Shown: in pieces, positions 5,440-24,141 of the stretch | How positions within the stretch are numbered: position 1 is the stretch's first letter | Layout of the letters: every line of letters begins with the position of its first letter | IMG/VR virus record: IMGVR_UViG_3300045988_126785 | Coordinates: 1-64,000 of that record | Origin: a virus | DNA: 64,000 bases | Reading direction: 5' to 3' (one strand) | Notes under the pieces: model-generated | Databases searched by the model: none | What the model saw: only the letters and a program-made list of their open reading frames with translations | Told to the model about the DNA's origin: nothing | Translations under genes and position numbers: made by a program

Positions 5440-5694
5440 ATGGGCGGGTTTACAGTAATAATCAAGAAACAGCCGCAGAAATATTTAGACAAGCTCCCGG
5501 AGCCTGAACGGGGCCGGGTAGCGGCGGCGGTGGCCGGATTATCAACCCTTTCCGGCGATATTGTCCCCTTGCGGGGTGCTGGCTCTCACATGTACCGGTT
5601 GAAAATCTATCATTACCGGGCAATTTTTCAGATCGACACGGACAAAGAAACCGTTACTGTAAAAGAGATCAATACACGCGGAGACATATACTAA
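5440..5694 (+). CDS. RelE/ParE-family type II toxin
   Basis: Contains LPEPERGRV...MYRLKIYHYRAIFQID...VTVKEINTRGDIY and has an AGGAGG RBS. Confidence 0.8.
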   Translation: MGGFTVIIKKQPQKYLDKLPEPERGRVAAAVAGLSTLSGDIVPLRGAGSHMYRLKIYHYRAIFQIDTDKETVTVKEINTRGDIY

Positions 5695-5773
5695 AGCAGA
5701 ACCAGAAGCCGAATAAAGGAGCAGAAAAAGCAGCATAAACAATCGTATTGAGGCATTGAAAGGAGCATATAAC

Positions 5774-6115
5774 ATGAACGAAGCATTACGCGCACGACTG
5801 GCAGAAATTGACGCCCAGCCCGCCGAAAATCTCACCCGGGGAGATGCGGCCAGCCTTGCCGCTGCGGAAGCTATGGACGACGGAACCGCCGAAAACATCA
5901 ACGATTATATAGCCCGGAAAACCAAAACCACAAAGGCCCAGCAAGCCGCCGTTCGCAAGTATGTAAAAAAGACTTATGACAGAATGGATCTTGTTTTACC
6001 GAAAGGGCAAAAAGCCGTTATAAAGACTTGCGCCGCCTCCCTGGGAGAAACGGCAAACTCTTTTGTAAATCGTGCTATTTCGGATGCACTCGCAAAATAT
6101 CAAGCCAACGCCTGA
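5774..6115 (+). CDS. ribbon-helix-helix (Arc/CopG-like) protein, candidate antitoxin
   Basis: The C-terminal LVLPKGQKAVIKTCAASLGETANSFVNRAISDAL fits a beta-helix-helix pattern. GAAAGGAG RBS. Confidence 0.55.
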   Translation: MNEALRARLAEIDAQPAENLTRGDAASLAAAEAMDDGTAENINDYIARKTKTTKAQQAAVRKYVKKTYDRMDLVLPKGQKAVIKTCAASLGETANSFVNRAISDALAKYQANA

Positions 6116-6116
6116 C

Positions 6117-6142
6117 CCCCAAAACGCAGAACAGCGACCCGG
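6117..6142 (+). repeat. 26-nt post-gene repeat, copy 1 (CCCCAAAACGCAGAACAGCGACCCGG)
   Basis: Identical to 6399-6424. Each copy directly follows an RHH gene stop codon and runs into a CCCGG/CCGGG hairpin. Confidence 0.9.
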
Positions 6143-6185
6143 AAAAACTCCGGGCCGCTCCACCCTATGAAAGCGAGGTAAACCC

Positions 6186-6398
6186 ATGCCCAGACCCAGA
6201 ACCAGCACCACCAGAACAGACGCCCAAAGACGGGCGGAAAACAAGTATAAAAACAAGGCGCAAATTGTGCTTGCCTGCCGGATGGACCGCCAGACGGGGG
6301 AACGCTATAAGGCCCTTTGCGCCGAACGCGGCACCACGCCCAACGCCGAAATCAAAGCCTTCATTTTGTCCCAGCTGGGCGAACAGCCCGCCGACTAA
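6186..6398 (+). CDS. ribbon-helix-helix protein (paralog-like of 5774-6115)
   Basis: Contains KAQIVLACRMDRQTGERYKALCAERGTTPNAEIKAFILSQL. Confidence 0.55.
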   Translation: MPRPRTSTTRTDAQRRAENKYKNKAQIVLACRMDRQTGERYKALCAERGTTPNAEIKAFILSQLGEQPAD

Positions 6399-6424
6399 CC
6401 CCAAAACGCAGAACAGCGACCCGG
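6399..6424 (+). repeat. 26-nt post-gene repeat, copy 2
   Basis: Identical to 6117-6142. Confidence 0.9.
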
Positions 6425-6449
6425 CTACACCGGGAGAAAGGACGAAAAA

Positions 6450-6695
6450 ATGTTTACAATCAATTACAATAACGGATTCTGGGTCGAGTGCGCCGGCACT
6501 TTGGACGAGGCAAAAGCCATGGCCGACGAGCGCGCCGGCTATACGCAGTGTGATATTACAATCGAGGACGAAAACCACGAGGGAGTCGCCCACCGCAGAT
6601 GGTACGGCGTTCCGTTCGATCCGTCCGAAACGGAAACCACTGAAGATGAAGTAATCCAGTTTGGATCCTTTGGTTTTTATGACAGATGGGAGTAA
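6450..6695 (+). CDS. hypothetical protein (81 aa)
   Basis: Track ORF with a GAGAAAGGA RBS. Confidence 0.55.
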   Translation: MFTINYNNGFWVECAGTLDEAKAMADERAGYTQCDITIEDENHEGVAHRRWYGVPFDPSETETTEDEVIQFGSFGFYDRWE

Positions 6696-6700
6696 CAGAA

Positions 6701-6736
6701 CAGCGGCCCGGAGTTTTCCGGGCCGCTGTTTTTTTT
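6701..6736. terminator. rho-independent terminator between convergent genes
   Basis: CAGCGGCCCGG, loop AGTTTT, CCGGGCCGCTG, then T8. Confidence 0.8.
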
Positions 6737-6746
6737 ATGCCGTTTT

Positions 6747-6962
6747 TCAATCCGTTACACGTTCCCCGCTGGGCAAAATAAACGCACTTTCAAACCCGCA
6801 GCCAACGGCCCCGGCAACGTCCTTCAGATCCGCAGGAGTAAACCCCTCCCGCTTCATTTTTTGTGAAAACGCCTGTGGGCTGCTTCCGCAGCGTCTCGCC
6901 AACTCTGAAACGCTGATCCCCAGCTTTACGCATAAAATTTTGATCTGCTCCGATGTCGGCAA
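6747..6962 (-). CDS. XRE/Cro-CI-type HTH regulator (71 aa)
   Basis: Contains QIKILCVKLGISVSELARRCGSSPQAFSQKMK. Divergent from the rightward operon. Confidence 0.7.
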   Translation of the reverse strand: MPTSEQIKILCVKLGISVSELARRCGSSPQAFSQKMKREGFTPADLKDVAGAVGCGFESAFILPSGERVTD

Positions 6963-6985
6963 AAAATCACCCCTTTTCGCTTTTT

Positions 6986-7014
6986 AATATAAACGTTCTC
7001 GTTTGCATTGTCAA
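6986..7014 (-). promoter_or_regulatory. sigma-70-type promoter for 6747-6962
   Basis: On the minus strand: TTGACA, 17 nt, TATATT. The spacer contains AAACG-N4-CGTTT (6991-7004). Confidence 0.6.
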
Positions 7015-7057
7015 CCACGATTTTTTTAAAATAAACAGTAAAGTTTAAATTTACCTA

Positions 7058-7086
7058 TTGACATTATAAACATTATCGTTTATACT
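7058..7086 (+). promoter_or_regulatory. sigma-70-type promoter for the rightward operon
   Basis: TTGACA, 17 nt, TATACT. An AAACA-N4-CGTTT half-palindrome at 7068-7081 overlaps the spacer and -10. Confidence 0.65.
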
Positions 7087-7131
7087 ATAAACATCAAGAG
7101 AACCAAATTAAACCGACAGGAGGCCGCAATC

Positions 7132-7224
7132 ATGAGTTTTCACCTTTTCATCCTTATTCTGGGCGCTGGCACCTTTGCCCGCCTGATGTTCCGCGTGGTG
7201 GATCTCATCGAGGCCCGCCGCTAA
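7132..7224 (+). CDS. 30-aa hydrophobic peptide
   Basis: Hand translation gives MSFHLFILILGAGTFARLMFRVVDLIEARR. GGAGG RBS. It is the first ORF after the promoter. Confidence 0.35.
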   Translation: MSFHLFILILGAGTFARLMFRVVDLIEARR

Positions 7225-7248
7225 ATCAAAATCAAGGAGGATCACCCC

Positions 7249-7878
7249 ATGTTTAACAGTCTTTACCATGCCGAGATCGGCGGCGGCTACACCCTCCGCC
7301 GGAAAGTCATCATCAACGCCGCGGACCTGCGGCCCCTGGGCGGTCAAATTGATGTTGCCGCCATCATCGAGAACGGCGACGAGCTGAACAGCACCACCGT
7401 TACAACGGAGGCCGCCGCGCTGGCCGCGTTTCATTCCATGGTCCAGCAGTACGCCGAACCCCTGCAAAAAGCTGTGGACGCCGCCGGACTGGTTCCGGGC
7501 CGGAAATATACCCTTGTATATCTCTCCGAGTTCGGTTTCCCCATCGCGGAGAAAATCACCTTTCACGGCTACACCCTCACCACCTACGCCCAGCACGCCG
7601 ACGTTGTGCGCCTGACTTATACCCCATACCGCAAGCGCTCCCTGCGTGGCCGGCTGTTTTGCGGCTCGTCCTCCCTGCTGATCTTCAACGGCTGGCAGGA
7701 TCTGCCGGAAACCGCCACGCACGAAACCCTGAAGGAGGACGAGAAAATCAAGATCACCCGCAGTAAATACGGCTGCTTTTCCGCTTCCTATATCGAGGAC
7801 GCCGCCGCCCTGCTGAAGGACCCGGTTATGATCTTCAAAAGCTACCAGACCGGCGCCAACGGCAAAGTTTACGCCTGA
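7249..7878 (+). CDS. hypothetical protein (209 aa)
   Basis: Track ORF with an AAGGAGG RBS. Its stop lies inside a GCCTGAACAGC copy. Confidence 0.6.
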   Translation: MFNSLYHAEIGGGYTLRRKVIINAADLRPLGGQIDVAAIIENGDELNSTTVTTEAAALAAFHSMVQQYAEPLQKAVDAAGLVPGRKYTLVYLSEFGFPIAEKITFHGYTLTTYAQHADVVRLTYTPYRKRSLRGRLFCGSSSLLIFNGWQDLPETATHETLKEDEKIKITRSKYGCFSASYIEDAAALLKDPVMIFKSYQTGANGKVYA

Positions 7879-7982
7879 ACAGCACCCCCCGGACGCCTTG
7901 GAGCCGCCGCACCGGGTAAAGCGACGGCACCCCAGAAAGCCAAAATCTACACATTCAAAACACATTTCAGGAGGATTTTACC

Positions 7983-9536
7983 ATGACTGACAAGAACAAC
8001 CGCCCCATGAAAACCGGCGACGTGGTGGAGATCACCGGCGCATACTTCAAGAATGACAACGGCCTTTACTTCGTCGAGCACACCCCCTGCGATCCGAATT
8101 GGAGCGGCCGGGATCACTGCCTCCGGCGCATCAAGCGCAACGGCGAACTCAGCACCGCAAAGGATAACATTTGCTTCTGGCCCATTTCCGCCTTTGTGAA
8201 CAGCCGGGACAAGCGGGCCGCCGCCAACGAGTGGAACCGGGAGCACGCGGAAATCGAAATCAAGACCTTCCCCCACACGGAACACATTGCCGCCTATTTT
8301 GCAAGCGAGGCGGACAGCCTGGACGTGACAATCAAGCGCTATACATGGGACTTTGGCGAGGACTGCCAGACCGTCAAGGATACGAAAGAAACGCAAGCCT
8401 TTTACCGCTCCATTGCTGACGGTCTCCGGACTGAACAGCCCACCGCCGCCACCGAACAGCCCACCGCCGCCACCGAACAGCCCAGCGCCGCCACCGAACA
8501 GCCCGAACAGCAGCCCCCCGCCACCGGCGCAGGTGCGGAAGCACCCGCAGAACAGCCGGAGGCCACCACCGCAGAACAGGCAGAACAGCCCACCCCGGAA
8601 AATCGGCCTGAAACGGTCCCGCCTTATGGTTCCATCGACGAGGAAACCGCCCGCAACGCCCATTACTGCGTCCACATGAGCGACTACAAACCCGGCAGCG
8701 CCACGGCCAGTTATCGAAATTCCGTGAACAAAGCCGCCGAACTGGTGGAACAGCAGAAAGCCCGCGTTAGCACTTTTTACCATGACAAGCTGGACACCCT
8801 GCTTGACCGCTACGCCCGCCGCCTTGCCCAGTGGACGAACGATTACAACCGCAACCAGGCCAGCTATCCCAGCCAGTTTATCGCCGGGGCGGGCAACTTC
8901 AATATGCGCAAGCATAACCGCCAGATGTCCCGCGAGGACTCCCTGTGGGAGGAATACCGGCAGATTGAGGCGATTCTGGACAAGATCCGCAGCATCGGCA
9001 CCGGCCCGGTAGACCTTGCCGACCCCCACGCCCGCGAAATGCTCACCGAGCGCCTGAACAGCCAACGCCAGATGTTGGAGGACGCCAAAACCGCCAACGC
9101 CTATTACCGCAAGCACAAAACGCTGGAAGGCTGCCCCGGTCTCAGCGAGAAAAACCGCGCATGGCTGACCCGTCCCGGCGTGTTCGCCTCCGGTGACGGC
9201 TCCCCCATCTCCCTGTACGGATCCCCCTTCCCCGCTTACGAGCTGGCCAGCATCCGGGGCAAGATCGAGCGGACAGAACAGCGCCTCGCGGAGCTTGACC
9301 GCAGAGAACAGCAGGCCGCCGAGCCTCAGACCGGCACCGCCTTTGACGGCGGGCAGATCGTCCGCAATATCGACCTGAACAGACTGCAAATCCTCTTTGA
9401 CGCCATCCCCGACGCCGACACCCGCGCCGCCCTGAAGCAAAACGGCTTCCGCTGGTCTCCCAAAAATCAGGCATGGCAGCGCCAGCTCACCGACAACGCC
9501 GAACGCGCCGCCCGTCAGGTCCTCTGCCTTGCCTGA
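7983..9536 (+). CDS. large polyvalent-type protein with a DUF3560-like C-terminus
   Basis: The C-terminus has LKQNGFRWSPKNQAWQRQ. The protein also has an EQPTAAT repeat linker and an AGGAGG RBS. Confidence 0.6.
   Translation: MTDKNNRPMKTGDVVEITGAYFKNDNGLYFVEHTPCDPNWSGRDHCLRRIKRNGELSTAKDNICFWPISAFVNSRDKRAAANEWNREHAEIEIKTFPHTEHIAAYFASEADSLDVTIKRYTWDFGEDCQTVKDTKETQAFYRSIADGLRTEQPTAATEQPTAATEQPSAATEQPEQQPPATGAGAEAPAEQPEATTAEQAEQPTPENRPETVPPYGSIDEETARNAHYCVHMSDYKPGSATASYRNSVNKAAELVEQQKARVSTFYHDKLDTLLDRYARRLAQWTNDYNRNQASYPSQFIAGAGNFNMRKHNRQMSREDSLWEEYRQIEAILDKIRSIGTGPVDLADPHAREMLTERLNSQRQMLEDAKTANAYYRKHKTLEGCPGLSEKNRAWLTRPGVFASGDGSPISLYGSPFPAYELASIRGKIERTEQRLAELDRREQQAAEPQTGTAFDGGQIVRNIDLNRLQILFDAIPDADTRAALKQNGFRWSPKNQAWQRQLTDNAERAARQVLCLA
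8433..8511 (+). repeat. 21-nt in-frame tandem repeat (GAACAGCCCACCGCCGCCACC, about 3.7 copies)
   Basis: Read directly. It encodes (EQPTAAT)n. Confidence 0.9.
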
Positions 9537-9543
9537 ACAGCGG

Positions 9544-9574
9544 CAAAAACCCACTTGGCCCACCCTGCTACAAT
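9544..9574 (+). promoter_or_regulatory. promoter-like motif CAAAAACCCNCTTGG-N10-TACAAT, copy 1 of 3
   Basis: Same spacing and core as 14168-14198 and 21403-21433. TGCTACAAT reads as an extended -10. Confidence 0.45.
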
Positions 9575-9613
9575 GAAATTAAGAACTGAACAGCCCAGCG
9601 AGGGGGGGTAAGG

Positions 9614-10096
9614 ATGTCAAAATACAAAGATTTAACCGGTCAACGCTTCGGAATGTTGGAAGTTGTTCAATATGTCGCATCTGATAAGCACGGTAACGCT
9701 CTGTGGCAATGCCGTTGTGATTGTGGGCGAAAGTCAATAGTCCCGGCGAAAGATTTAAACTCTGGAAATACAAGGTCCTGTGGATGCTATCGAAAGACTT
9801 TCGCCGTGACGCATGGCGCAACCGTAGAAAGCGATCCGGATTATGAGCGCTGGAAAGCCATGAAAAAGCGCTGCACAAACACATGCGATAGGTATTATCA
9901 CAGATACGGCGGCCGCGGTATCAAGATTTTCAGTCTTTGGCTACATGATTTTGGGGCGTTCCGCACATACATACGAACTCTTCCGCATTATGGGGAACCC
10001 GGCTATACGCTGGACAGGATAGACAATTCTGGAAACTATGCGCCGGGAAATCTTAAATGGTCAACCCCGAAAGAACAAGCAAACAACCGAGGATAA
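9614..10096 (+). CDS. free-standing HNH-type (homing) endonuclease
   Basis: Contains WQCRCDCG...RSCGC and LDRIDNSGNYAPGNLKWSTPKEQANN. The gene is visibly AT-richer than its neighbours. Confidence 0.7.
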   Translation: MSKYKDLTGQRFGMLEVVQYVASDKHGNALWQCRCDCGRKSIVPAKDLNSGNTRSCGCYRKTFAVTHGATVESDPDYERWKAMKKRCTNTCDRYYHRYGGRGIKIFSLWLHDFGAFRTYIRTLPHYGEPGYTLDRIDNSGNYAPGNLKWSTPKEQANNRG

Positions 10097-10128
10097 GTGA
10101 TTGCCCACGAGGGCATGAAAGGACACCT

Positions 10129-10395
10129 ATGAAAGCTAAACTGAACGATGCGCAGGCCCGCGCATATATCGCGGGCGACCTGAGTGAACCCGTGCAGGAG
10201 ATTGAGCGTAAACACATTCTCCGCCTTGTGTCCGCTTTGCAGGAGGCTGCAGAGCGTCCCGGTATGAACCTCGCAAACCTGTGCAAAACCGCCGACCGCT
10301 ATGTGGAAAATCATCAGAACACAGAAAACTGGCAGGAGTTTTCCTTGCTGATTGCGGCCCGTGACGCCATCAAATCCCAATCAAATGAACAATAA
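10129..10395 (+). CDS. hypothetical protein (88 aa)
   Basis: Internal start MKAKLND, preceded by a GAAAGGA RBS. Confidence 0.5.
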   Translation: MKAKLNDAQARAYIAGDLSEPVQEIERKHILRLVSALQEAAERPGMNLANLCKTADRYVENHQNTENWQEFSLLIAARDAIKSQSNEQ

Positions 10396-10452
10396 TTCGA
10401 TAAAATCGAATCTGGACCAGGAATCGCAAGAGCGCGAAAGGAGATTTACCCC

Positions 10453-10668
10453 ATGTTTATGGTTTACTTCAAAGGCCCCAGGGACAAACAGCATAAGCCC
10501 ATGAGCCTGAACACCGGCGAGCTGTTTAACCGCCTGGTTTATGCGCCCGTCTACAATGACGATCTTCTCCCCGCCGTGAAGTCATGGATCGACCTGAACA
10601 AAAAGAACGCCCCGGATTGTTCGATCCAGTGCCGCGTCCCCGGCACCTCGAAAATCCTATACGCCTGA
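10453..10668 (+). CDS. hypothetical protein (71 aa)
   Basis: Track ORF with a GAAAGGAG RBS. Its stop lies inside a GCCTGAACAGC copy. Confidence 0.5.
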   Translation: MFMVYFKGPRDKQHKPMSLNTGELFNRLVYAPVYNDDLLPAVKSWIDLNKKNAPDCSIQCRVPGTSKILYA

Positions 10669-10693
10669 ACAGCCGCACCGAAAGGAGAATACC

Positions 10694-10834
10694 ATGTACT
10701 TTCTCGAAAATTACCGCGGCTTTGGCGTATACCTGACTGGATCGGGATATATCGCCCGTAACCGCGAAAGAATTTTAACCGCAAAGACCTACGCCGAAAT
10801 GATCCAGTGCATCAACCTCTGGACCTGCTGTTGA
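10694..10834 (+). CDS. small hypothetical protein (46 aa)
   Basis: Hand translation gives MYFLENYRGFGVYLTGSGYIARN... GAAAGGAG RBS. Below the track cutoff. Confidence 0.4.
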   Translation: MYFLENYRGFGVYLTGSGYIARNRERILTAKTYAEMIQCINLWTCC

Positions 10835-10847
10835 AAGGAGCACAACC

Positions 10848-11078
10848 ATGAAAACCGCCGGATATTGGGAGTGCAGAAACGAGATCAGCGCCGCGCGCCT
10901 CCCCACCCCGCACAAGTACGAACCGTTTACCGAGCTTTTCGACGTGGACAAGCTCGACGCCATCCGCGACAAATACGGCGTTGACCTTTACCGCGAGTGC
11001 TACGCAGACGTAGCCCGCGAGGTCATGGCCACCGCAAGAAATGAACAGAAAGGAGCACATACCCATGTTGAACACTGA
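10848..11078 (+). CDS. hypothetical protein (76 aa)
   Basis: Track ORF with a GAAAGGAG RBS. Confidence 0.5.
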   Translation: MKTAGYWECRNEISAARLPTPHKYEPFTELFDVDKLDAIRDKYGVDLYRECYADVAREVMATARNEQKGAHTHVEH

Positions 11079-11793
11079 ACAGACCCTCACCCGCGTTTTG
11101 CAGATCGTCCACGCGCTGGACGAGGACGAAACCGCCATTTATACCGCCGTCAGCAAGAACCCCTACGAATGGGAAAGCGCCGTCGGCCCCATCCCCCAGC
11201 TGTATTTCTTAGAACAGGATCTCCGCCGCACGTTGGTGGAGGAAGCCGCCACAAAGTCTGGGCGCCGCTCCGCCTTTTTCGCCGCCCGCCGCATCTGCGA
11301 CGCAGCCGTGGCTAAGAACAGCACCCGCCCCGCTTCACAGGGCTTCTGGATCGACGAGGAAGGCAAGCAGTGCGTCTGCGACGGCTTCCGCGGCTTCCGC
11401 CTGAACAGCCCTATGGAACTGACCGCCGCGCCGGAACTCAGCGCCGACGGTTCCCGGTTCAACCTGGCGCAGATCATAGCCCCCACCCGCAAGAACACCC
11501 TGCGTCTCACGCTCCCCTCCGTGACGGAGGTTCGGGCGAAAATCAAGACGGACCGTGCGGAATGGGCTGCCAAGCGCCACCGCAAGGGCGAAACCTTCTC
11601 CCCTTATTACGATTTCGGCCCCGGTCTCCCCAGAGTCAACCCAAACTATTTGATCGACTTCCTTCAGCTTTTCCCCGACGGCGAGGCGTTCGCCTCTGAA
11701 CAGAAGCCCTATATCACCCCCATCTATTTCCGGTCCGCAGACGGCGAGGGCATCCTCTGCCCCTGCCGCAAGGCCGACGAAGCCGCCGCCTGA
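11065..11793 (+). CDS. hypothetical protein with a sliding-clamp (DnaN C-terminal)-like motif
   Basis: Internal start MLNTEQT after an AAAGGAG RBS. The C-terminal VNPNYLIDFLQLF...PIYF...GILCPCRK resembles the NxxYLxDxL...P.R end of beta clamps. Confidence 0.5.
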   Translation: MLNTEQTLTRVLQIVHALDEDETAIYTAVSKNPYEWESAVGPIPQLYFLEQDLRRTLVEEAATKSGRRSAFFAARRICDAAVAKNSTRPASQGFWIDEEGKQCVCDGFRGFRLNSPMELTAAPELSADGSRFNLAQIIAPTRKNTLRLTLPSVTEVRAKIKTDRAEWAAKRHRKGETFSPYYDFGPGLPRVNPNYLIDFLQLFPDGEAFASEQKPYITPIYFRSADGEGILCPCRKADEAAA

Positions 11794-11819
11794 ACAGCGG
11801 CGCAGGAAAGGACATCTTT

Positions 11820-13721
11820 ATGATCGCATATCTGGAAACGCAAAATCGTTACGGCGAGAAAGAACTCTGTGCGCTTGTTGATGGCGTTGAAATCGCCAGA
11901 ATCACGAAAACAGAAAATATGGGGAAGCCGCAATATTGCGTCGGTATTACATGGGAGCGTGAGCGCTCGGAGTTTTTAGGGCGCGCCGCCACCATTGCCG
12001 GAGCCAAAAAGCTGATCCGGCAGTGGGGTGAACAGCACCTCACTGAGGTTTCCCAGAGGACCACCGGGCAGGATGTGAAGCGTCTCCCTCAGTTTTCCGA
12101 CACCGGCTTTTACCCCACGCCCTCCAAGCTGGCTGGGCGGATGCTGGCAGGCGTCCGCTGGAAGGATGTTACCGCGATTTTGGAGCCGTCAGCCGGAAAG
12201 GGTGATTTGGCGGATGCCGCCCGGAAATTCGTCGAGGATTACCACAATGACCGGAAGGTCTGCGTAGACAAGCGGGAACCGTATATCGACTGCGTAGAGA
12301 TTGACCCTGATCTTGCCCTTATCCTGAAGGGCAAAGGCTATCCCGTGGTCTCCGATGATTTCCTGACCTTCCATACATTCAAGCAGTATGACCTGATCCT
12401 CATGAACCCTCCCTTTGAGAACGGAGATGAACACCTGCTCAAAGCCTTGTCGCTTATGGAACGCGGCGGCCAGATTGTTTGTCTGTTGAATGCGGAAACC
12501 ATCCGAAACCCCTACACCAACCGCCGAAAGGTCCTGCGTCAGAAGCTCTCAGAGTACAATGCAAAAATCGAATTTATCGAAAATGCGTTTGCCCACGCCC
12601 AGCGGAAAACCAATGTGGAAATCGCCATGATCTTCGTTGACATTCCCTACCCAAAGCCAGAGTCCGATATTTTTGAGCATTTAAAGCGTTCTCGTGAAGA
12701 AACATACACCGCTGCGGATGGCCCAACCGCCTTGGCGTCTGCCGACTGGCTGCAAAACATGATCGACGGGTTCCAGTTTGAGGCAGAGCTGGGGAATAAG
12801 CTAATCCGGGAATATCAAGGTCTCTGTCCCTACCTGATGAATGGCAGCACCACCTATGAAAAGCCGCTCCTGGAACTCACTTGCTCGGAAAGGGGGCGCG
12901 GAAATGACGCTGGACTTCCTAACGTCTATCTCCGGGCACTTCGCGGCAAGTATTGGCGCACTCTGCTGTCCCGCCCGGAACTCACTGGCAAAATGACCTC
13001 CGCCATGCGGCAGGACTATCAGGAAAAAATCGAAACTCTCTCCGCCTATGACTTTAGCCGGTACAATATTGAAACCGTCATGCGTGAGATCGCCCACCAG
13101 CTTGCACAAGGCGTGGAAGAATCCATTCTGAATCTCTTTGAGACCTTCACGGCGAAACACGCCTGGTATCCTGAGTGTGCCAACAACATCCATTATTACA
13201 ATGGCTGGGCCACCAACAAGGCCCACAAAATCGGCATGAAGGTGATCGTCCCGGCTTCCGGCTGCTATGCCGACTCATGGCGCGACGAAAAGCTGGACAC
13301 ATACCGGGTCAATTCCATGATCTCCGACTTGGAGCGCGCTATGAACTATCTGGACCGTGGCGAAACTTACTGCCATATCCCGGTAGATGTGGCCATTCTT
13401 CGCGCAAATGGCGTCAACAGCAATAAGGCGTCCTTCACCTATTTTGACTGCGTTTTCTATAAGAAAGGAACCTGCCATATCAAGTTCAAGCCTAACGCAG
13501 TTCGTATCATTGACCGCCTGAATATCTTTGCCGGTCAGCACAAAAACTGGCTTCCCCCTGTCTATGGAAAGAAGCATTATCAGGACATGACACCGGAGGA
13601 ACAGGCAGTGATCGACGAGTTCCAGGGCGAAGCAGCTTACGAGTCCGTATTGTCTGATCCGTCTATGCTGATCTCCGCCGGGGACATTGCCCTCGCCGCC
13701 CTTCCGTCCTCCAATCCATGA
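11820..13721 (+). CDS. N6-adenine DNA methyltransferase with a long C-terminal (DUF4942-like) domain
   Basis: Contains ILEPSAGKGDL (motif I) and DLILMNPPFENGDEHL (NPPF). Confidence 0.8.
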   Translation: MIAYLETQNRYGEKELCALVDGVEIARITKTENMGKPQYCVGITWERERSEFLGRAATIAGAKKLIRQWGEQHLTEVSQRTTGQDVKRLPQFSDTGFYPTPSKLAGRMLAGVRWKDVTAILEPSAGKGDLADAARKFVEDYHNDRKVCVDKREPYIDCVEIDPDLALILKGKGYPVVSDDFLTFHTFKQYDLILMNPPFENGDEHLLKALSLMERGGQIVCLLNAETIRNPYTNRRKVLRQKLSEYNAKIEFIENAFAHAQRKTNVEIAMIFVDIPYPKPESDIFEHLKRSREETYTAADGPTALASADWLQNMIDGFQFEAELGNKLIREYQGLCPYLMNGSTTYEKPLLELTCSERGRGNDAGLPNVYLRALRGKYWRTLLSRPELTGKMTSAMRQDYQEKIETLSAYDFSRYNIETVMREIAHQLAQGVEESILNLFETFTAKHAWYPECANNIHYYNGWATNKAHKIGMKVIVPASGCYADSWRDEKLDTYRVNSMISDLERAMNYLDRGETYCHIPVDVAILRANGVNSNKASFTYFDCVFYKKGTCHIKFKPNAVRIIDRLNIFAGQHKNWLPPVYGKKHYQDMTPEEQAVIDEFQGEAAYESVLSDPSMLISAGDIALAALPSSNP

Positions 13722-13734
13722 AAGGAACCGTTCC

Positions 13735-14163
13735 ATGAATTATAAAGCCATGAAGTACAACGCATTGATTGATGATCTTGTTTCGCTTGCCAAAGAGTCG
13801 CATGATTTCCGAGAGTCTATCGTCTGCACGGAGGCGTCAACAACGATCATGCATCTTTTTAGCGAAAACGAACGGCTTTCGATGGAGCTGAAGCACATGG
13901 AAGAAGCTGCCGCAAGCGCCAAGTCTGAAAAGTTCAGTCTGCAAGATTTCGTCCGCACAAACCTGATCCCTCCCAAGCAGCGGGTGTGCCTGTGTGAACA
14001 AATTGACAGCGACTTTGCGAGACCAGCTTGGAGCGGCCCGTTTTGTGAACTTCCGCAGTCTTATACCCAGCGCGCCGTGGATAAGGTATTTGTCCCGATT
14101 TCCGATGCGGCCCTGGAATGCTACCGCTTTACCCTTTACATCATTTTGCGCCCGGAATCCTAA
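13735..14163 (+). CDS. hypothetical protein (142 aa)
   Basis: Internal start MNYKAMK after a GAAAGGA RBS. AT-richer than its flanks. Confidence 0.5.
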   Translation: MNYKAMKYNALIDDLVSLAKESHDFRESIVCTEASTTIMHLFSENERLSMELKHMEEAAASAKSEKFSLQDFVRTNLIPPKQRVCLCEQIDSDFARPAWSGPFCELPQSYTQRAVDKVFVPISDAALECYRFTLYIILRPES

Positions 14164-14167
14164 ATGT

Positions 14168-14198
14168 CAAAAACCCCCTTGGAGGGGTATCGTATAAT
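14168..14198 (+). promoter_or_regulatory. promoter-like motif CAAAAACCCCCTTGG-N10-TATAAT, copy 2 of 3
   Basis: Heads the tRNA/ncRNA block. The 22-mer at 14165-14186 is identical to 21400-21421. Confidence 0.5.
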
Positions 14199-14308
14199 AA
14201 AATCAAGGGCGAGATAGACGCCGCCCTTGCTTTCCATCTTTCTATCTTCCCTCACGCACGGCGGCTGCCGGCCTACCCAACGGCAGCCGCCAAACTCCAA
14301 AACAGCAT

Positions 14309-14407
14309 GGGCGAAAATCGTGCGGTCACGCACGCGGACTAATCTCCCGCGTGAACAGGCTTTTCCATTCGGCTTGTTTCCCGGTTCAACTCCGGTTTCG
14401 CTCACCA
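14309..14407 (+). ncRNA. class-II-shaped tRNA-like element with a 9-nt anticodon loop (not assignable)
   Basis: Acceptor GGGCGAA/TTCGCTC plus A-CCA. T arm CCGG-TTCAACT-CCGG. Long variable arm with an 8-bp stem. D hairpin CGTG-CGGT-CACG. The central stem CACGCGG/CCGCGTG has the loop ACTAATCTC. Confidence 0.4.
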
Positions 14408-14517
14408 GCGGCGCGGATGCCGCACGTAGTTATCTCCTACCTTCCAAGCGTGGCCCGTAAGTACACGCTCGCCGTTCTCGGAGCGGTGCCCCGGTGCAAC
14501 CCCGGCAGGGCAGCAAC

Positions 14518-14591
14518 GCGGATATAGTTCATCGGCAGAACGGCGGCTTCCCAAGCCGCGAAGGTGGGTTCGATTCCCATTATCCGCTCCA
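14518..14591 (+). tRNA. tRNA-Gly (CCC)
   Basis: Hand-folded cloverleaf: GCGGATA/TATCCGC, D stem GTTC/GAAC, anticodon stem GCGGC/GCCGC with loop TTCCCAA, T loop TTCGATT, then T-CCA. Confidence 0.85.
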
Positions 14592-14703
14592 AGGGTGCAC
14601 GAGCAGCGCCCTGCATGGATCGCAAAGCCTCCTGAATGTGTATGACAGCCCGGAAAGACGGGCCGCCACATCACCCGCCATGGCGCAAACAAGGCGGGTC
14701 TAT

Positions 14704-14773
14704 GCAGATGTCCAACCGGTGCTTTTTGTCCTTTCCACCCGGGAGCCGGGGACCTCTCCTGCCGTCTGCACCA
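14704..14773 (+). ncRNA. tRNA-like mini-element U1 (no D arm, non-canonical T loop)
   Basis: Acceptor GCAGATG/CGTCTGC plus A-CCA. It shares both ends and a GGAG-N10-CTCC arm with U2. Confidence 0.3.
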
Positions 14774-14930
14774 TGCCCTCCCACATAAGAGGTGGTTACT
14801 CTATAAACCGTAGTGGGCATGAAACCTCCATATCTGGCAGTGGAGTCGGCGGGTTGATACAGCCGCTATCGGGACGGTATTCTCGGAGAACCTGAGCGAC
14901 ATGACCGCCGGGAAAGACCGGCATCTATAC

Positions 14931-14993
14931 GCAGACGTCCAAGCCGCGGCCGATCACGCGGGGAGTTGGGGGCATCTCCAACCGTCTGCACCA
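14931..14993 (+). ncRNA. tRNA-like mini-element U2 (63 nt)
   Basis: Acceptor GCAGACG/CGTCTGC plus A-CCA. Central hairpin CCGCG-GCCGATCA-CGCGG. Flush hairpin GTTGG-GGGCATCT-CCAAC. Confidence 0.3.
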
Positions 14994-15184
14994 TGGCGGG
15001 GAACGTTTCGGGTGATGCGTCTCTGCCAGTGCTCCCCAAAAATATAAGCTGCGGCCTGCAAAAGCAGCTCGTCTTCGGCAACTGGTACTTGCCCTTGACG
15101 CCCCGGTGCAATTCCGGTTGGGCATAGGACCCCTCGCACCTCTCGTCCAGGGTTCCCTGACGAAGTGTCCCAGAGGGGACATTT

Positions 15185-15259
15185 GCAGACGTAGCTCAGT
15201 AGGTTAGAGCACCCCCGAAGTGGGGAACGATGCAGGTTCAAGTCCTGCCGTCTGCACCA
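15185..15259 (+). ncRNA. tRNA-like element U3: canonical D and T arms but a 5-nt anticodon loop
   Basis: GCAGACG TA GCTC-AGTAGGTTA-GAGC A, then CCCCC-GAAGT-GGGGA, then ACGAT, then GCAGG-TTCAAGT-CCTGC, then CGTCTGC A CCA. Confidence 0.45.
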
Positions 15260-15432
15260 AATCCCAAAGCTGACAGCGTACAGGGGCAATATTGCGGCAA
15301 GCCCGTACTTGGCGAGCGTTGTGTCCCGTCAGCAGGGCGTGGCTCCGCGAAGGGCCGTTCGATTTGCCCGCGTTGAATCGAGCGTTACTTAGAACACGTA
15401 CCCGCTCCGGCGGGTACGCAAACGCGGGATAT

Positions 15433-15509
15433 AGGGGCGAATGTTCCAAGGCTGGCGAGGCGGTCTCCAAAACCGCTTGGGTGGGTTCGATTCCCAACCG
15501 TCCCTGCCA
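15433..15509 (+). tRNA. tRNA-Trp (CCA) with an irregular D arm and T/acceptor junction
   Basis: Acceptor AGGGGCG/CGTCCCT plus G-CCA. Anticodon stem GCGGT/ACCGC with loop CTCCAAA. T loop TTCGATT. Positions 8-9 are AA, the D stem pairs poorly, and there is 1 extra nt before the acceptor 3' strand. Confidence 0.6.
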
Positions 15510-15781
15510 ACTCTAAACGGAGTCACCAACGGAGTATAAACAAGTGGGGTAACCGTGGAAACCGGAGATATGCGGCATAGGTGCCCCGTAAGGGGAGACC
15601 ACAGCGAGCGACGCCAAATGCTGGCCGAAGCGCTAAAGCAGGGCAGGACTGCAATGCCGTACCATCCCGGCCAGCGGGCGAGGAAGCGTAAAAAGCTAAG
15701 TATCAGGCGGCTGGTATAATTGCCAAGTTCCTGATGGCTGGTAGGAAGACGCAGCGCAGCCGGGAGCCTATGTAAAAATAC
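15510..15781 (+). ncRNA. 272-nt ORF-free, hairpin-rich spacer (candidate structured RNA)
   Basis: CCCC-GTAA-GGGG at 15584-15595. A 7-bp pairing CTGGCCG/CGGCCAG (15620-26 with 15668-74). ATCAGG/CCTGAT (15702-07 with 15729-34). It also contains TGGTATAAT (15712-15720), an extended -10. Confidence 0.3.
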
Positions 15782-22611: not shown

Positions 22612-23619
22612 ATGGGAAGAACCTCTGCGCAGGAGCGCCGGGTCATGTCGGCCTTAGATAGCTGGCTCCGCAACGTGCAGGCCAGCGACGCGTCGGAGCG
22701 CACCGTCACCGCCTACGCCGCCGTCACAAACAGCTTTTATTCTTTCCTCGTGGAAAGCGGCCTTTCCACCGAGGAACCAACCTTCACCACCATGCAAGCC
22801 TACCGGGATCACCTCTTTGACCGGGGCCTCTCCCCCGTCTCCGTCCGGTATCATCTGGTGGTCCTCCGCTCCTTCTTCACCTACGCCAGCTCCCCCGAAC
22901 TGGGCGATGATCGCTTTTATGAGCAAAACCCTGTTTCCCTCTACCTGATGCCCTCCCTCCGCAAATTGGGAAAGCGTCCCTATGACGTGCTGCTCACCGA
23001 TGAGCAGGTCTGTAAGCTCTGGCGGGATTCCCCCGTCCGCACAACCCACCCGGAGAACTGGCCCCGGAATTACGCCATCGTGATCCTGCTGCTGACCACC
23101 GAACTGCGCAACGCCGAACTGCGGGCCTTGACCCCGGCGGACATCGACTTGGAGGACGCCGCCCTCCGCGTGGAACACGGCAAAGGCGATAAATTCCGGG
23201 TGGTGGACCTGCCGGACATCGCCGTGATCGCCCTCCGTCATTACCTCGCCAGCGGCATCCGCCCGGACGATCTCCCGGATACCGCCCCCCTGTTCGGCAC
23301 CCTCCGTTCCGGCGAATGGAAGGCCGGCACAAAACAGTGGCTTTCGGAGCTGGTGGAACGTCACGTCCGTTCCGTCACCGGCGTTTCGGACATCCGCAGC
23401 CACGATCTCCGCCACGTCGGCTCCCGTTTGGACCTCAATTCTGGTATGCCCGAAAATGAACTGCAAGCCAAATTGGGCCATGCCAGCCCCATCACCACCC
23501 AGCGTTATTCCGGGCGGCTCATGGACCGTTCTGGGCGGAAAAGCGCCAAGAAGGTTTTTGCCGAGCGGGACTTGCAAGCCAAGCGCAGTGCCGACAAGCT
23601 CACCGCCTTTTACGCCTGA
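22612..23619 (+). CDS. int: tyrosine recombinase / phage integrase
   Basis: Contains TELRNAELRAL (R), HGKGDK (K), HDLRH (HxxR) and LGHASPITTQRY (H, Y). Confidence 0.9.
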   Translation: MGRTSAQERRVMSALDSWLRNVQASDASERTVTAYAAVTNSFYSFLVESGLSTEEPTFTTMQAYRDHLFDRGLSPVSVRYHLVVLRSFFTYASSPELGDDRFYEQNPVSLYLMPSLRKLGKRPYDVLLTDEQVCKLWRDSPVRTTHPENWPRNYAIVILLLTTELRNAELRALTPADIDLEDAALRVEHGKGDKFRVVDLPDIAVIALRHYLASGIRPDDLPDTAPLFGTLRSGEWKAGTKQWLSELVERHVRSVTGVSDIRSHDLRHVGSRLDLNSGMPENELQAKLGHASPITTQRYSGRLMDRSGRKSAKKVFAERDLQAKRSADKLTAFYA

Positions 23620-23645
23620 TTCCCAGCGCTCACCCTGAACCCAAA

Positions 23646-23688
23646 ACACACGCTCATGCGTTTTGATCGCACGAGCGTGTGTTTTTTT
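23646..23688 (+). terminator. rho-independent terminator after int
   Basis: ACACACGCTC...GAGCGTGTGT (10 bp, with an inner TGCG/CGCA pairing), then T7. Confidence 0.8.
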
Positions 23689-23710
23689 GTCTGCATAAGA
23701 TTACACAACT

Positions 23711-23742
23711 ATAAAAAGAGCGCACGGTTAGTCCGTGCGCTC
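23711..23742 (-). terminator. rho-independent terminator ending the late operon
   Basis: GAGCGCACGG, loop TTAGT, CCGTGCGCTC, with a T-run on the minus strand. The stop codon of 23728-23865 sits in the loop. Confidence 0.7.
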
Positions 23743-23865
23743 CATGTAAAGGGCCTCCGCCCTGCGCTGCGCCGCCATCAGGTCCGCTTTTAGGCGTTCC
23801 AGTTCCTCAATGGCTTCCGTAATGGCGTGAAACAGACAGAGATATTCCGGTTTCAGCGGCTCCAT
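23728..23865 (-). CDS. small hypothetical protein (45 aa)
   Basis: Hand translation gives MEPLKPEYLCLFHAITEAIEELERLKADLMAAQRRAEALYMERTD. GGGAGGGGAG RBS. Confidence 0.45.
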   Translation of the reverse strand: MEPLKPEYLCLFHAITEAIEELERLKADLMAAQRRAEALYMERTD

Positions 23866-23946
23866 GGTCTCCCCTCCCTTCTGCGGTCAGTGTACCACAG
23901 AGGGCGTGTCGAAAAAACGGGAAATCAGCCGGGGCTGCCGGATATT

Positions 23947-24141
23947 TTATGCTTTCTCTCCCGCCGCCTTCTCCGGATGCAGCATCCCGATCAATTCGGA
24001 ATACTCCGCCTCCGTCAGCTTCCCTGCCGCAAAGAAAATGTCCAGCTTTTCCTTGGTTCACTTCCGCTGGAGCAGGTCCAGAACGATGGCCGTAACCCCG
24101 GATCTTGTCACGGCGCTGATTACGATTTGTACAATTTCCAT
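23947..24141 (-). pseudogene. XkdX-like small tail-region gene interrupted by an in-frame TGA (24058-24060)
   Basis: Codon-by-codon reading gives MEIVQIVISAVTRSGVTAIVLDLLQRK-TGA-TKEKLDIFFAAGKLTEAEYSELIGML...EKA-TAA. GGAGACA RBS. Confidence 0.45.

Follow-up and report, generated by a model that had tools for sequence, protein, structure and literature searches.

Why does one seven-letter word recur, always in the same orientation, along a few kilobases of a phage genome, and what does it do at the gene ends where several of its copies lie? The question is raised by a window of 64,000 nucleotides, the first 64 kb of the 74,855-bp contig IMGVR_UViG_3300045988_126785 in the IMG/VR database, in which the heptamer GAACAGC (hereafter the word) is concentrated between positions 6129 and 12036, in the early part of a rightward gene arm. 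Comparison with related phages demonstrates that the word is a real, conserved and selected signal with a place in the exchange of gene cassettes. As to its function, the reading favoured here, tentatively and at somewhat less than even confidence, is that the word would be a clade-specific junction signal read in the mRNA and would also act as a short-homology linker for cassette exchange in a temperate gut phage of Oscillospiraceae.

The excess of the word is confirmed, and it is confined to one strand. An earlier sequence-only reading of this DNA had counted 23 plus-strand copies between 6129 and 12036; the excess it described is real, the number is 25, and the minus strand of the region has none. 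Across both strands of the window there are 40 copies, compared with 9.05 ± 2.87 in dinucleotide shuffles, and within the region the word is the top-ranked 7-mer against a local expectation of 0.64 under a first-order and 3.85 under a third-order Markov model, with an excess in the early operon of about 20-fold. Genome-wide, 45 of 46 copies are oriented with transcription. The rest of the rightward arm (12037-24000) holds no copy, and the coding strand of the late arm, which had been credited with about 6, has 14 in the window and 20 in the genome, about twice the local expectation of 6-9.5. The word is sharp, as each single-mismatch neighbour occurs 0-2 times with the exception of GAACAGA, found five times, and in its full form it reads C-[T/A]-GAACAGC, with a consensus of [not T] at the position that follows; at gene ends the form is CGCC-TGA-ACAGC. 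The 11-mer GCCTGAACAGC is present six times, at exactly the positions listed earlier (7873, 9052, 9531, 10663, 11399 and 11788), where 0.07 copies are expected. An antisense or guide RNA carrying GCUGUUC was considered as a partner of the word and rejected, as reverse-complement copies are absent outside late coding sequence.

Most copies, 17 of the 25, lie in coding bodies, and the word could in principle lack any function and be a by-product of A+C-rich codon usage (Glu-Gln and Asn-Ser pairs), a tandem repeat and duplicated junctions. Seven copies do derive from one 21-nt tandem repeat, which the sequence-only reading had also seen (8433-8504, 3.4 copies); they stand at 8433, 8454, 8475, 8496, 8505, 8550 and 8583, with one GAACAGG at 8574, in a TEQPTAA linker whose repeat number varies among relatives and which belongs to a 517-aa protein (7983-9536, plus strand). 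The elements at the first two junctions, J1 and J2 in the table, are a 26-nt duplication, and Glu-Gln and Asn-Ser pairs lift the protein-level expectation to 7.4 coding copies. The excess nevertheless survives synonymous shuffling. With the proteins kept, 7.4 ± 1.9 coding copies result against the 17 observed, a codon-permutation null gives 1.1, and with either null 0 of 1000 shuffles reach 17, in a comparison that includes the seven repeat-derived and hence non-independent copies. The codon-preserving null that the sequence-only reading had offered as a possible refutation consequently fails to reproduce the count. Copies are also spread over three reading frames (GAA-CAG-C, xxG-AAC-AGC and, as a stop, T-GA-ACA-GC), over spacers and over the stops of unrelated genes, there are three copies of the 13-mer CGCCTGAACAGCC that differ in gene and frame, synonymous sites inside the word vary less than those outside it, and 12 kb of the same strand and arm are free of it. 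That the word is a mere by-product is therefore very improbable.

Relatives of the phage, which are numerous in human-gut viromes and of which 76 IMG/VR loci were retrieved, provide the evidence for selection. Loci L001-L036, whose homologue of the 517-aa protein is 81-95% identical, each carry 13-26 sense and 0-4 antisense copies, and the shorter fragment L066 has 7; loci in which this homologue is at most 69% identical show background numbers only. The form CTGAACAGC clusters on one strand in the binned contigs of two relatives, with 10 of 12 copies in ~3.9 kb in one and 6 of 8 in ~1.7 kb in the other. At orthologous positions in about 37 relatives, junctions included, the word is nearly always intact notwithstanding diverged flanks, as the sequence-only reading had proposed to check. 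Copy 8748 is intact in 100% of relatives against a flank identity of 80%, copy 6698 in 19 of 19 against only 78%, and the copies of J1 and J2 in 32 of 32 aligned relatives and 21 of 21, respectively. Third positions of codons inside the word are also better conserved than those of the same codons elsewhere in the same genes (GAA,.966 versus.911; CAG,.994 versus.950; AAC,.994 versus.927; AGC, 1.000 versus.933). Between 7900 and 9600, comparison with 30 relatives gives 258 informative sites, 26 distinct sequences and a Hudson-Kaplan minimum number of recombination events (Rm) of 79 in 1.7 kb, so that the signal of recombination or homoplasy is extreme, and because the sequences recombine so freely, conservation of the word by hitch-hiking is unlikely. 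Taken together, the comparisons show that the word is under nucleotide-level constraint in the relatives, a constraint that is not absolute.

The coding copies of the 517-aa gene indicate how the word may have arisen within proteins. Distant homologues share only the part of the protein from residues ~147-215 onward to 517, and at the four copies in this conserved C-terminal domain they read VEARK, QLQKL, TQARL and RTEQA where the window has VEQQK, RLNSQ, TEQRL and REQQA. The simplest account is that these four copies came about in the present clade by non-synonymous change. The protein matches a PHROG family annotated as primase (phrog_19458) and has no match in Pfam; the primase label is doubtful, a close relative is named DUF3560 by a database source, and in some relatives the TEQPTAA linker carries an insertion of ~585 bp with a PF18840 polyvalent-protein domain. 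The idea that the copies are iterons of an origin within a primase gene was set aside in view of the doubtful label, the lack of a Pfam match and the nature of the repeat as a variable low-complexity linker.

The remaining copies lie at gene junctions. At four of the six 11-mers the TGA is the stop codon of a gene (7249-7878, 7983-9536, 10453-10668 and 11065-11793) and all four proteins end in alanine; these observations of the sequence-only reading hold, as do the three gene ends followed by CAGAACAGCG[A/G]CCCGG-loop-CCGGG and the copy at 9588 ahead of the ribosome-binding site (RBS) of the HNH gene. The gene families that end inside the word are unrelated to one another and number five or six. 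After the J1 element comes a degenerate hairpin with RAGATH-5-like pieces (CCGGA, GGGCCGC and AAAGCG), and after the identical J2 element a hairpin, CCCGG-CTACA-CCGGG, and then an RBS. The next ATG follows the word at 26, 27, 28, 39, 57, 79 or 106 nt, and the word itself does not contain AGGAG. A terminator is found only at J3, where alone the word is paired with GCTGTT, and a promoter-like sequence only in the insert (9544-9574) that copies 9535 and 9588 bracket; most copies have neither. These positions show that gene cassettes have the word as their 3′ border: it contains the stop codon, and a few bases further on comes the next Shine-Dalgarno (SD) sequence, a hairpin or a RAGATH-5 RNA. Two other roles at these junctions were rejected. 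Hairpins with the word in the loop at 9535 and 11792 are, by eye, broken in their stems by the variants of relatives without compensation. Read-through of the stop into the spacer would need an open frame, and the post-stop frame is open to the next start at 11 of 13 junctions compared with 8 of 13 for each control frame; read-through was rejected because open frames are no more frequent than the low T content gives.

Table 1. Copies of the word and associated features of the early region (positions in the window).
Position	Strand	Feature	Context
6117-6142	+	J1, 26-nt element CCCCAAAACGCAGAACAGCGACCCGG, motif at 6129	right after the stop of RHH gene 5774-6115
6381-6387	+	coding copy GAA CAG C (Glu-Gln)	12 nt ahead of the stop of gene 6186-6398
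6399-6424	+	J2, 26-nt element identical to that of J1, motif at 6411	right after the stop of RHH gene 6186-6398
6697-6732	+	J3, intrinsic terminator with 16-bp stem, motif at 6698	5′ arm is AGAACAGCGGCCCGG
7058-7086	+	sigma-70-type consensus promoter TTGACA-17-TATACT	heads the early operon; no motif copy
7234-7255	+	5′ cassette linker AAGGAG-N7-CCCATGTT	recurs at 10438-10459 and 11050-11071; RBS-type breakpoints
7386-7392	+	coding copy CTG AAC AGC (Leu-Asn-Ser)	gene 7249-7878
7873-7883	+	GCC-TGA-ACAGC	stop of gene 7249-7878 inside the word
7889-7941	+	RAGATH-5-like RNA (RF02685), from Rfam	5 nt after word copy 7877, 10 nt after the TGA stop
8198-8204	+	coding copy GTG AAC AGC	N-terminal domain of the 517-aa protein
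8433-8589	+	low-complexity TEQPTAA-repeat linker	517-aa protein
8748-8754	+	coding copy GAA CAG C	VEQQK here, VEARK in distant homologues
9052-9062	+	coding 11-mer CGC CTG AAC AGC C	RLNSQ here, QLQKL in distant homologues; intact in 37/37 relatives
9276-9312	+	two coding copies (9276, 9306; Glu-Gln)	residues differ in distant homologues
9531-9541	+	GCC-TGA-ACAGC	stop of the 517-aa gene; intact in 35/35 relatives
9586-9594	+	CTGAACAGC	26 nt ahead of the HNH start codon
10663-10673	+	GCC-TGA-ACAGC	stop of gene 10453-10668; next ATG 27 nt on
11316-11322	+	coding copy AAG AAC AGC	gene 11065-11793; neighbouring codons highly variable in relatives
11399-11409	+	coding 11-mer CGC CTG AAC AGC C	gene 11065-11793
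11788-11798	+	GCC-TGA-ACAGC	stop of gene 11065-11793; methyltransferase ATG 28 nt on
12030-12036	+	final copy GAA CAG C	210 nt into the methyltransferase gene

The same junctions are where the genomes of relatives part from the window. In BLAST comparisons, blocks of homology end at the three CAGAACAGCG-hairpin junctions (6117-6159, 6391-6424 and 6696-6728), and further at 7875-7889, 9596-9599 (36 loci), 10671-10696 and 11808-11813 and inside the linker repeat. Across the word one left flank is joined to differing right flanks, the converse is also seen, and in 129 of 190 indel or replacement events between relatives, which are not independent of one another, GAACAG lies within about 25 nt of the boundary. 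Six relatives (L030-L035) carry at 7877 a 226-bp cassette made of an SD sequence, a 68-codon open reading frame (ORF) and a TGA within TGAACAGC, with TGAACAG on either side, L033 being one example. The methyltransferase gene 11820-13721 is missing in 14 relatives just downstream of copy 11792. After copy 9588, the HNH gene and an 88-aa ORF (ORF88) form an insertion of ~840 bp (9597-10435), in place of which most relatives have ~20 nt, with joints just after CTGAACAGCCC and within the RBS (CACGAGGGCATGAAAGGACA). Of 24 relatives, all of which keep the word, only 3 carry the HNH gene, and on this ground the word was rejected as the target site of an HNH homing endonuclease. Cassette order also differs among relatives in the RelE/RHH unit. 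Given the shared 5′ linker (SD...CCCATGTT) and 3′ linker (CGCC-TGA-ACAGC), the early region can be regarded as a cassette array, and the alignments show cassettes to be inserted, deleted and swapped at or beside the word. The tie to cistron boundaries and the module-boundary recombination sequence that the sequence-only reading had proposed are in this respect supported by blocks breaking at motif junctions, by hybrid junctions and by a word-flanked cassette. The word is the place of exchange; the data do not imply that it has a causal role in it.

A causal role is what a recombination or nicking hotspot would entail, in which a phage recombinase or nickase reads one strand and biased repair or conversion propagates the word, and such molecular drive would account for both the sharpness of the word and its spread into coding sequence. 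In favour of it, enrichment is limited to the exact heptamer, copies fall where the protein departs from its distant homologues, cassette endpoints fall inside the 7-8 nt that make up the word, and the region has an extreme recombination signal. On the other hand, no recombinase or nickase shares the distribution of the word, the HNH gene beside copy 9588 being limited to the three relatives mentioned, the integrase is distant and without a nearby copy, and initiating hotspots are usually lost rather than gained. Recombination is moreover too dense for hotspots to be localised; a four-gamete test over 1.7 kb could not place them, because with Rm = 79 every interval looks recombinant. A hotspot of this kind is judged quite unlikely.

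The sister lineages that lack the word suggest what it may do in RNA. Each of their loci has one or two twister-sister ribozymes and two to four RAGATH-5 copies above Rfam thresholds, all sense and all intercistronic in the early operon. Twister-sister matches (80-88 bits) are found in L056 (8654-8736), L057 (8264-8346 and 8807-8887), L063 (9104-9186), L079 (8891-8974) and L068 (9889-9972), and a type II hammerhead of 61 bits in L080 (8628-8694); each comes right after a stop codon and is followed by a CA-rich leader and an RBS. RAGATH-5 members above threshold in relatives occupy the equivalent operon, 8-10 nt after a TGA. L037-L082 provide 40 distinct contexts of RAGATH-5; in 35 of them it starts 6-11 nt past the stop of the ORF ahead of it, and of all 40 stops, 32 are TGA, mostly TGA-C (examples are L056 at 7651-7703 and 9181-9233 and L080 at 7618, 9135 and 9891). 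No ribozyme or RAGATH-5 passes the Rfam thresholds in the GAACAGC clade. The RAGATH-5-like RNA of the window, located in the 104 nt that separate gene 7249-7878 from the 517-aa gene, is a full-length match (1-53) of 44.5 bits (E 4.5e-5), below the gathering score of 50. A model (R1) made from 12 RAGATH-5 copies gives it 62 bits, having been built partly from that very sequence, and in a search of 1.25 Mb of loci R1 finds 100 copies, all sense, with exactly one per GAACAGC-clade locus; in every close relative searched, this single copy occupies the position that it has in the window. Four pairs of the RAGATH-5 hairpin have compensatory changes on both sides, with 92% of cells paired.

The spacing of 8-10 nt from stop to element is equal in the word clade and in the sister lineages. 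The sister junctions are laid out as ORF-TGA-CCC...-RNA element-CA-rich leader-SD-ATG and those of the window as ORF-TGA-ACAGC...-(RAGATH-5, hairpin, or SD directly)-ATG, and from these matching layouts the word is concluded to fill the interval that separates the stop codon from the intercistronic RNA element. The presence of self-cleaving ribozymes and RAGATH-5 at equivalent junctions of sister lineages gives indirect support to an RNA-level processing or coupling site. Several further observations concern these RNAs. The 5′ (C/G)CGG of RAGATH-5 co-varies by eye with the loop CCG(G/C), which suggests a pseudoknot, and a formal alignment count supports this in part only. A stop followed after ~8-10 nt by a pseudoknot is the geometry of known recoding signals, and the frame relation between RAGATH-5 and the gene that follows varies. 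Most RAGATH RNAs have no known role (PMC11061315). In nine sister loci (L056, L058, L063-L065, L069, L070, L079 and L080; 5-13 kb), CAAAACC/CCAAAAC occurs 9-15 times in sense and 0-2 times in antisense per locus, with 9-14 in an 8-kb early stretch against ~1.5 expected, flanking ribozymes and RAGATH-5 and filling 5′ leaders; as a sister-lineage counterpart of the heptamer it was rejected, being instead part of a degenerate and less sharp CA-rich leader. A DUF3800-VIII RNA (RF03075, 66-68 bits) lies upstream of the early operon on the minus strand in L063 (4375-4441) and L080 (3896-3962).

In the favoured reading, the word would be read in the mRNA as the first part of an intercistronic element, its place being taken in sister lineages by TGACCC and then RAGATH-5, twister-sister or hammerhead RNAs. 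It may set the separation or coupling of neighbouring cistrons through processing, termination or re-initiation, its reader would probably be a factor specific to this phage clade, and the intragenic copies would be extra sites of the same signal. As many junctions carry the word as a direct repeat, it could serve in addition as a short-homology linker for modular exchange between co-infecting relatives. A narrower version, in which the word is the recognition site of a trans-acting, clade-specific RNA-processing factor that replaced the cis ribozymes and most RAGATH-5, is rather unlikely.

Several results weigh against the favoured reading. As many as 17 of the 25 copies lie in coding sequence, where it is not evident what a junction signal would do, and seven of them come from a single tandem repeat. 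Some copies are dispensable: 8 of 36 relatives have lost copy 8198 by a synonymous substitution. The sister-lineage comparison is a positional analogy and not homology of the word, the predicted mRNA accessibility of the word is the same as that of composition-matched 7-mers, and co-occurrence among relatives identified no cognate factor, the distant relatives being too different. As regards exchange, block ends are also found at RBS or start-linker junctions without the word (7234-7245, 10427-10436, 10833 and 11042-11063), and breakpoint association is no proof of causality because viable recombinants favour gene boundaries anyway.

The mRNA could alternatively be read destructively, with the word as the target of a sequence-specific phage or host endoribonuclease that cuts immediate-early transcripts once their products are no longer needed, the many copies in the 517-aa gene hastening its shut-off. 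The RegB nuclease of T4 cuts GGAG in early mRNAs, and the word, like a RegB-type target, is short and enriched in early transcripts and at junctions. Its sharpness, its restriction to the sense strand of the early units and its occurrence in both coding and spacer positions agree with a nuclease target, and related lineages carry cis-cleaving ribozymes in the equivalent operon. The conserved early proteins, however, include no match to a nuclease family, the late arm does not avoid the word, with its 20 copies against 6-9.5 expected, and predicted accessibility is not raised. Such a nuclease target is considered unlikely.

Recognition of the word in double-stranded DNA is a further alternative, and the arrangement of promoters bears on it. 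The GAACAGC-rich stretch covers two units of transcription. One, the RelE/RHH unit (5440-6695), ends in a strong terminator (6697-6732); the other, the early operon, starts from the promoter at 7058-7086 and has no convincing plus-strand terminator up to ~14 kb. The word is absent from 6705 to 7385 and hence from this promoter and from a second one at 6986-7014. A function of GAAC as the -35 element of extracytoplasmic function (ECF) sigma promoters was rejected, since a position matrix gave no consistent -10 at the expected spacing. If copies acted as stoperators, a phage regulator, possibly an RHH or helix-turn-helix (HTH) protein, would block or pause RNA polymerase in lysogens, and this would suit an asymmetric word oriented with transcription in 45 of 46 genome copies, the location of copies in short intergenic spaces and over stops, as for the L5 stoperators (PMC9283540), and a temperate phage with repressor-like genes and an integrase. 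The early promoters, though, bear different palindromic repeats and have no copy in or near them, 7-9 bp is little for specific recognition of double-stranded DNA, the copies are gathered in 6 kb instead of being genome-wide, the absence of degenerate variants is unusual for protein operators, and most copies are intragenic. This explanation, too, is an unlikely one.

The sequence-only reading had also raised a Chi-like or orientation-polar signal of the host, in the arm that enters first. Such a signal (Chi, or a polar word of the KOPS/SRS type) would be a short, exact and strand-specific word, and three copies here continue as AGCGG, which is the Chi sequence of Bacillus subtilis. Two whole-phage contigs of relatives were found within metagenome-assembled genomes (MAGs) labelled Oscillospiraceae and Clostridia, and a candidate host was sampled as 400 kb (20 pieces of 20 kb) of one such draft MAG (G002), which contains a related phage contig and whose assignment as host is by binning; its GC content of 57.3% matches that of the phage. 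This sample has 120 copies of GAACAGC against 130 expected under a maximal-order Markov model (z-score rank 12382 of 16324), split 57:63 between the G-rich and C-rich strands, and the per-strand density of the word in the early operon is ~28 times that of the sample. Outside phage contigs, the two MAGs contain CTGAACAGC about once per 45 kb, and no other motif-dense islands were found, small local pairs elsewhere not being islands. With the word neither over-represented nor skewed in the candidate host, the Chi reading is largely refuted and scarcely credible. A site, kept in one orientation, for a phage DNA methyltransferase or for a host system of the Type III or BREX-like kind is likewise highly improbable: the word is a non-palindromic 7-mer with an A and the phage has several methyltransferase genes, but a target of restriction or modification should be depleted or neutral rather than ~20-fold enriched in one operon, and of 24 relatives that have the word, 11 lack the 633-aa methyltransferase.

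Among known systems, the closest by phenomenology are start-associated sequences and L5 stoperators, by evolutionary role the PeSL cassettes and by genomic context the neighbourhoods of twister, hammerhead and RAGATH RNAs. Start-associated sequences (SAS/ESAS) of Cluster K mycobacteriophages are 13 bp long with an SD core and lie 3-7 bp before start codons, in 11-19 copies of one orientation in the non-structural half of the genome; they are rare in the host and their function is unknown (PMC3203893). Like them, the word is short, asymmetric, in one orientation, at junctions of non-structural genes, scarce in the host and associated with unrelated gene families, and the upstream stop codon is sometimes included; unlike them, it is 7-11 nt in length, is placed at the stop codon or else 26-106 nt ahead of the next start, lacks an SD and is two-thirds intragenic. 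The stoperators bound by L5 gp71 in Cluster A mycobacteriophages are 13-mers that are found genome-wide and also serve as an operator in the early promoter (PMC9283540). They share with the word an asymmetric form, more than 20 copies, orientation with transcription and a location in short intergenic spaces, whereas the word has no promoter copy and is confined to 6 kb. PeSL cassettes of T4-type phages are composites of a sigma-70-type promoter and a terminator (PMC2839356, PMC4122927); the likeness consists in repeated junction sequences in a hyperplastic region of small non-essential early genes, where they coincide with indel or replacement endpoints between close relatives, and the difference in that the word is a bare 7-11-mer tied to a stop codon. 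With the twister, hammerhead and RAGATH neighbourhoods the word has in common the kind of operon, the sense orientation and the place after a TGA and before a CA-rich leader and RBS, although it is a linear heptamer without a conserved fold of its own. Word-bounded cassettes also recall the attC sites of integrons by functional analogy only. Integron cassettes are co-oriented and promoterless, with a boundary formed by a 7-nt attC core that often holds the cassette stop codon. The word, unlike attC, has no inverted-repeat partner (antisense copies in the region number 0), and no integron-type integrase lies beside the array, the sole integrase-like gene (22612-23619, phrog_1) being more than 10 kb away without a nearby copy. 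As it fails at least one defining feature of each, the word is not assigned to any known family.

The genome around the word is that of a temperate tailed phage, as judged from its integrase, anti-repressor, head proteins, several methyltransferases and four tRNA-like genes; the integrase-like gene and repressor-like genes are in the window. Its best named DNA match is Faecalibacterium phage FP_Toutatis, with 70% identity across ~0.8 kb. Between ~3.9 and 24 kb the genes point rightward, in the remainder leftward. GC skew is negative (C>G, plus strand) along nearly the whole window (1-64000), in rightward and leftward arms alike, and is therefore independent of transcription direction; AT skew flips with gene orientation. 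The early operon encodes small proteins without an assigned function, the 517-aa protein, the free-standing HNH gene and the 633-aa methyltransferase with a DUF4942 domain, and by its methyltransferase, DUF3560 and polyvalent-protein domains it looks like an establishment or anti-restriction module. One tRNA-like gene, at 15185-15259 on the plus strand between tRNA-Gly(CCC) and tRNA-Trp(CCA), scores 55 bits with the Rfam tRNA model and has an irregular anticodon loop (...CCCCCGAAGTGGGG...) to which ARAGORN can assign no anticodon.

Orientation-locked junction words are known mostly from mycobacteriophages and T4-like phages, and start-associated sequences are still without a mechanism. An abundant group of human-gut Oscillospiraceae phages now shows such a word, with population-genetic evidence for selection on the nucleotides themselves that is unusually clean. 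Its position in the slot where sister phages have self-cleaving ribozymes and RAGATH-5 ties together two unexplained phenomena. If a trans-acting factor did replace the ribozymes, the word and the ribozymes would be interchangeable ways to cut or uncouple an early polycistronic mRNA at cassette boundaries, and these phages would provide an experimental handle on the role of phage-borne small ribozymes and RAGATH RNAs.

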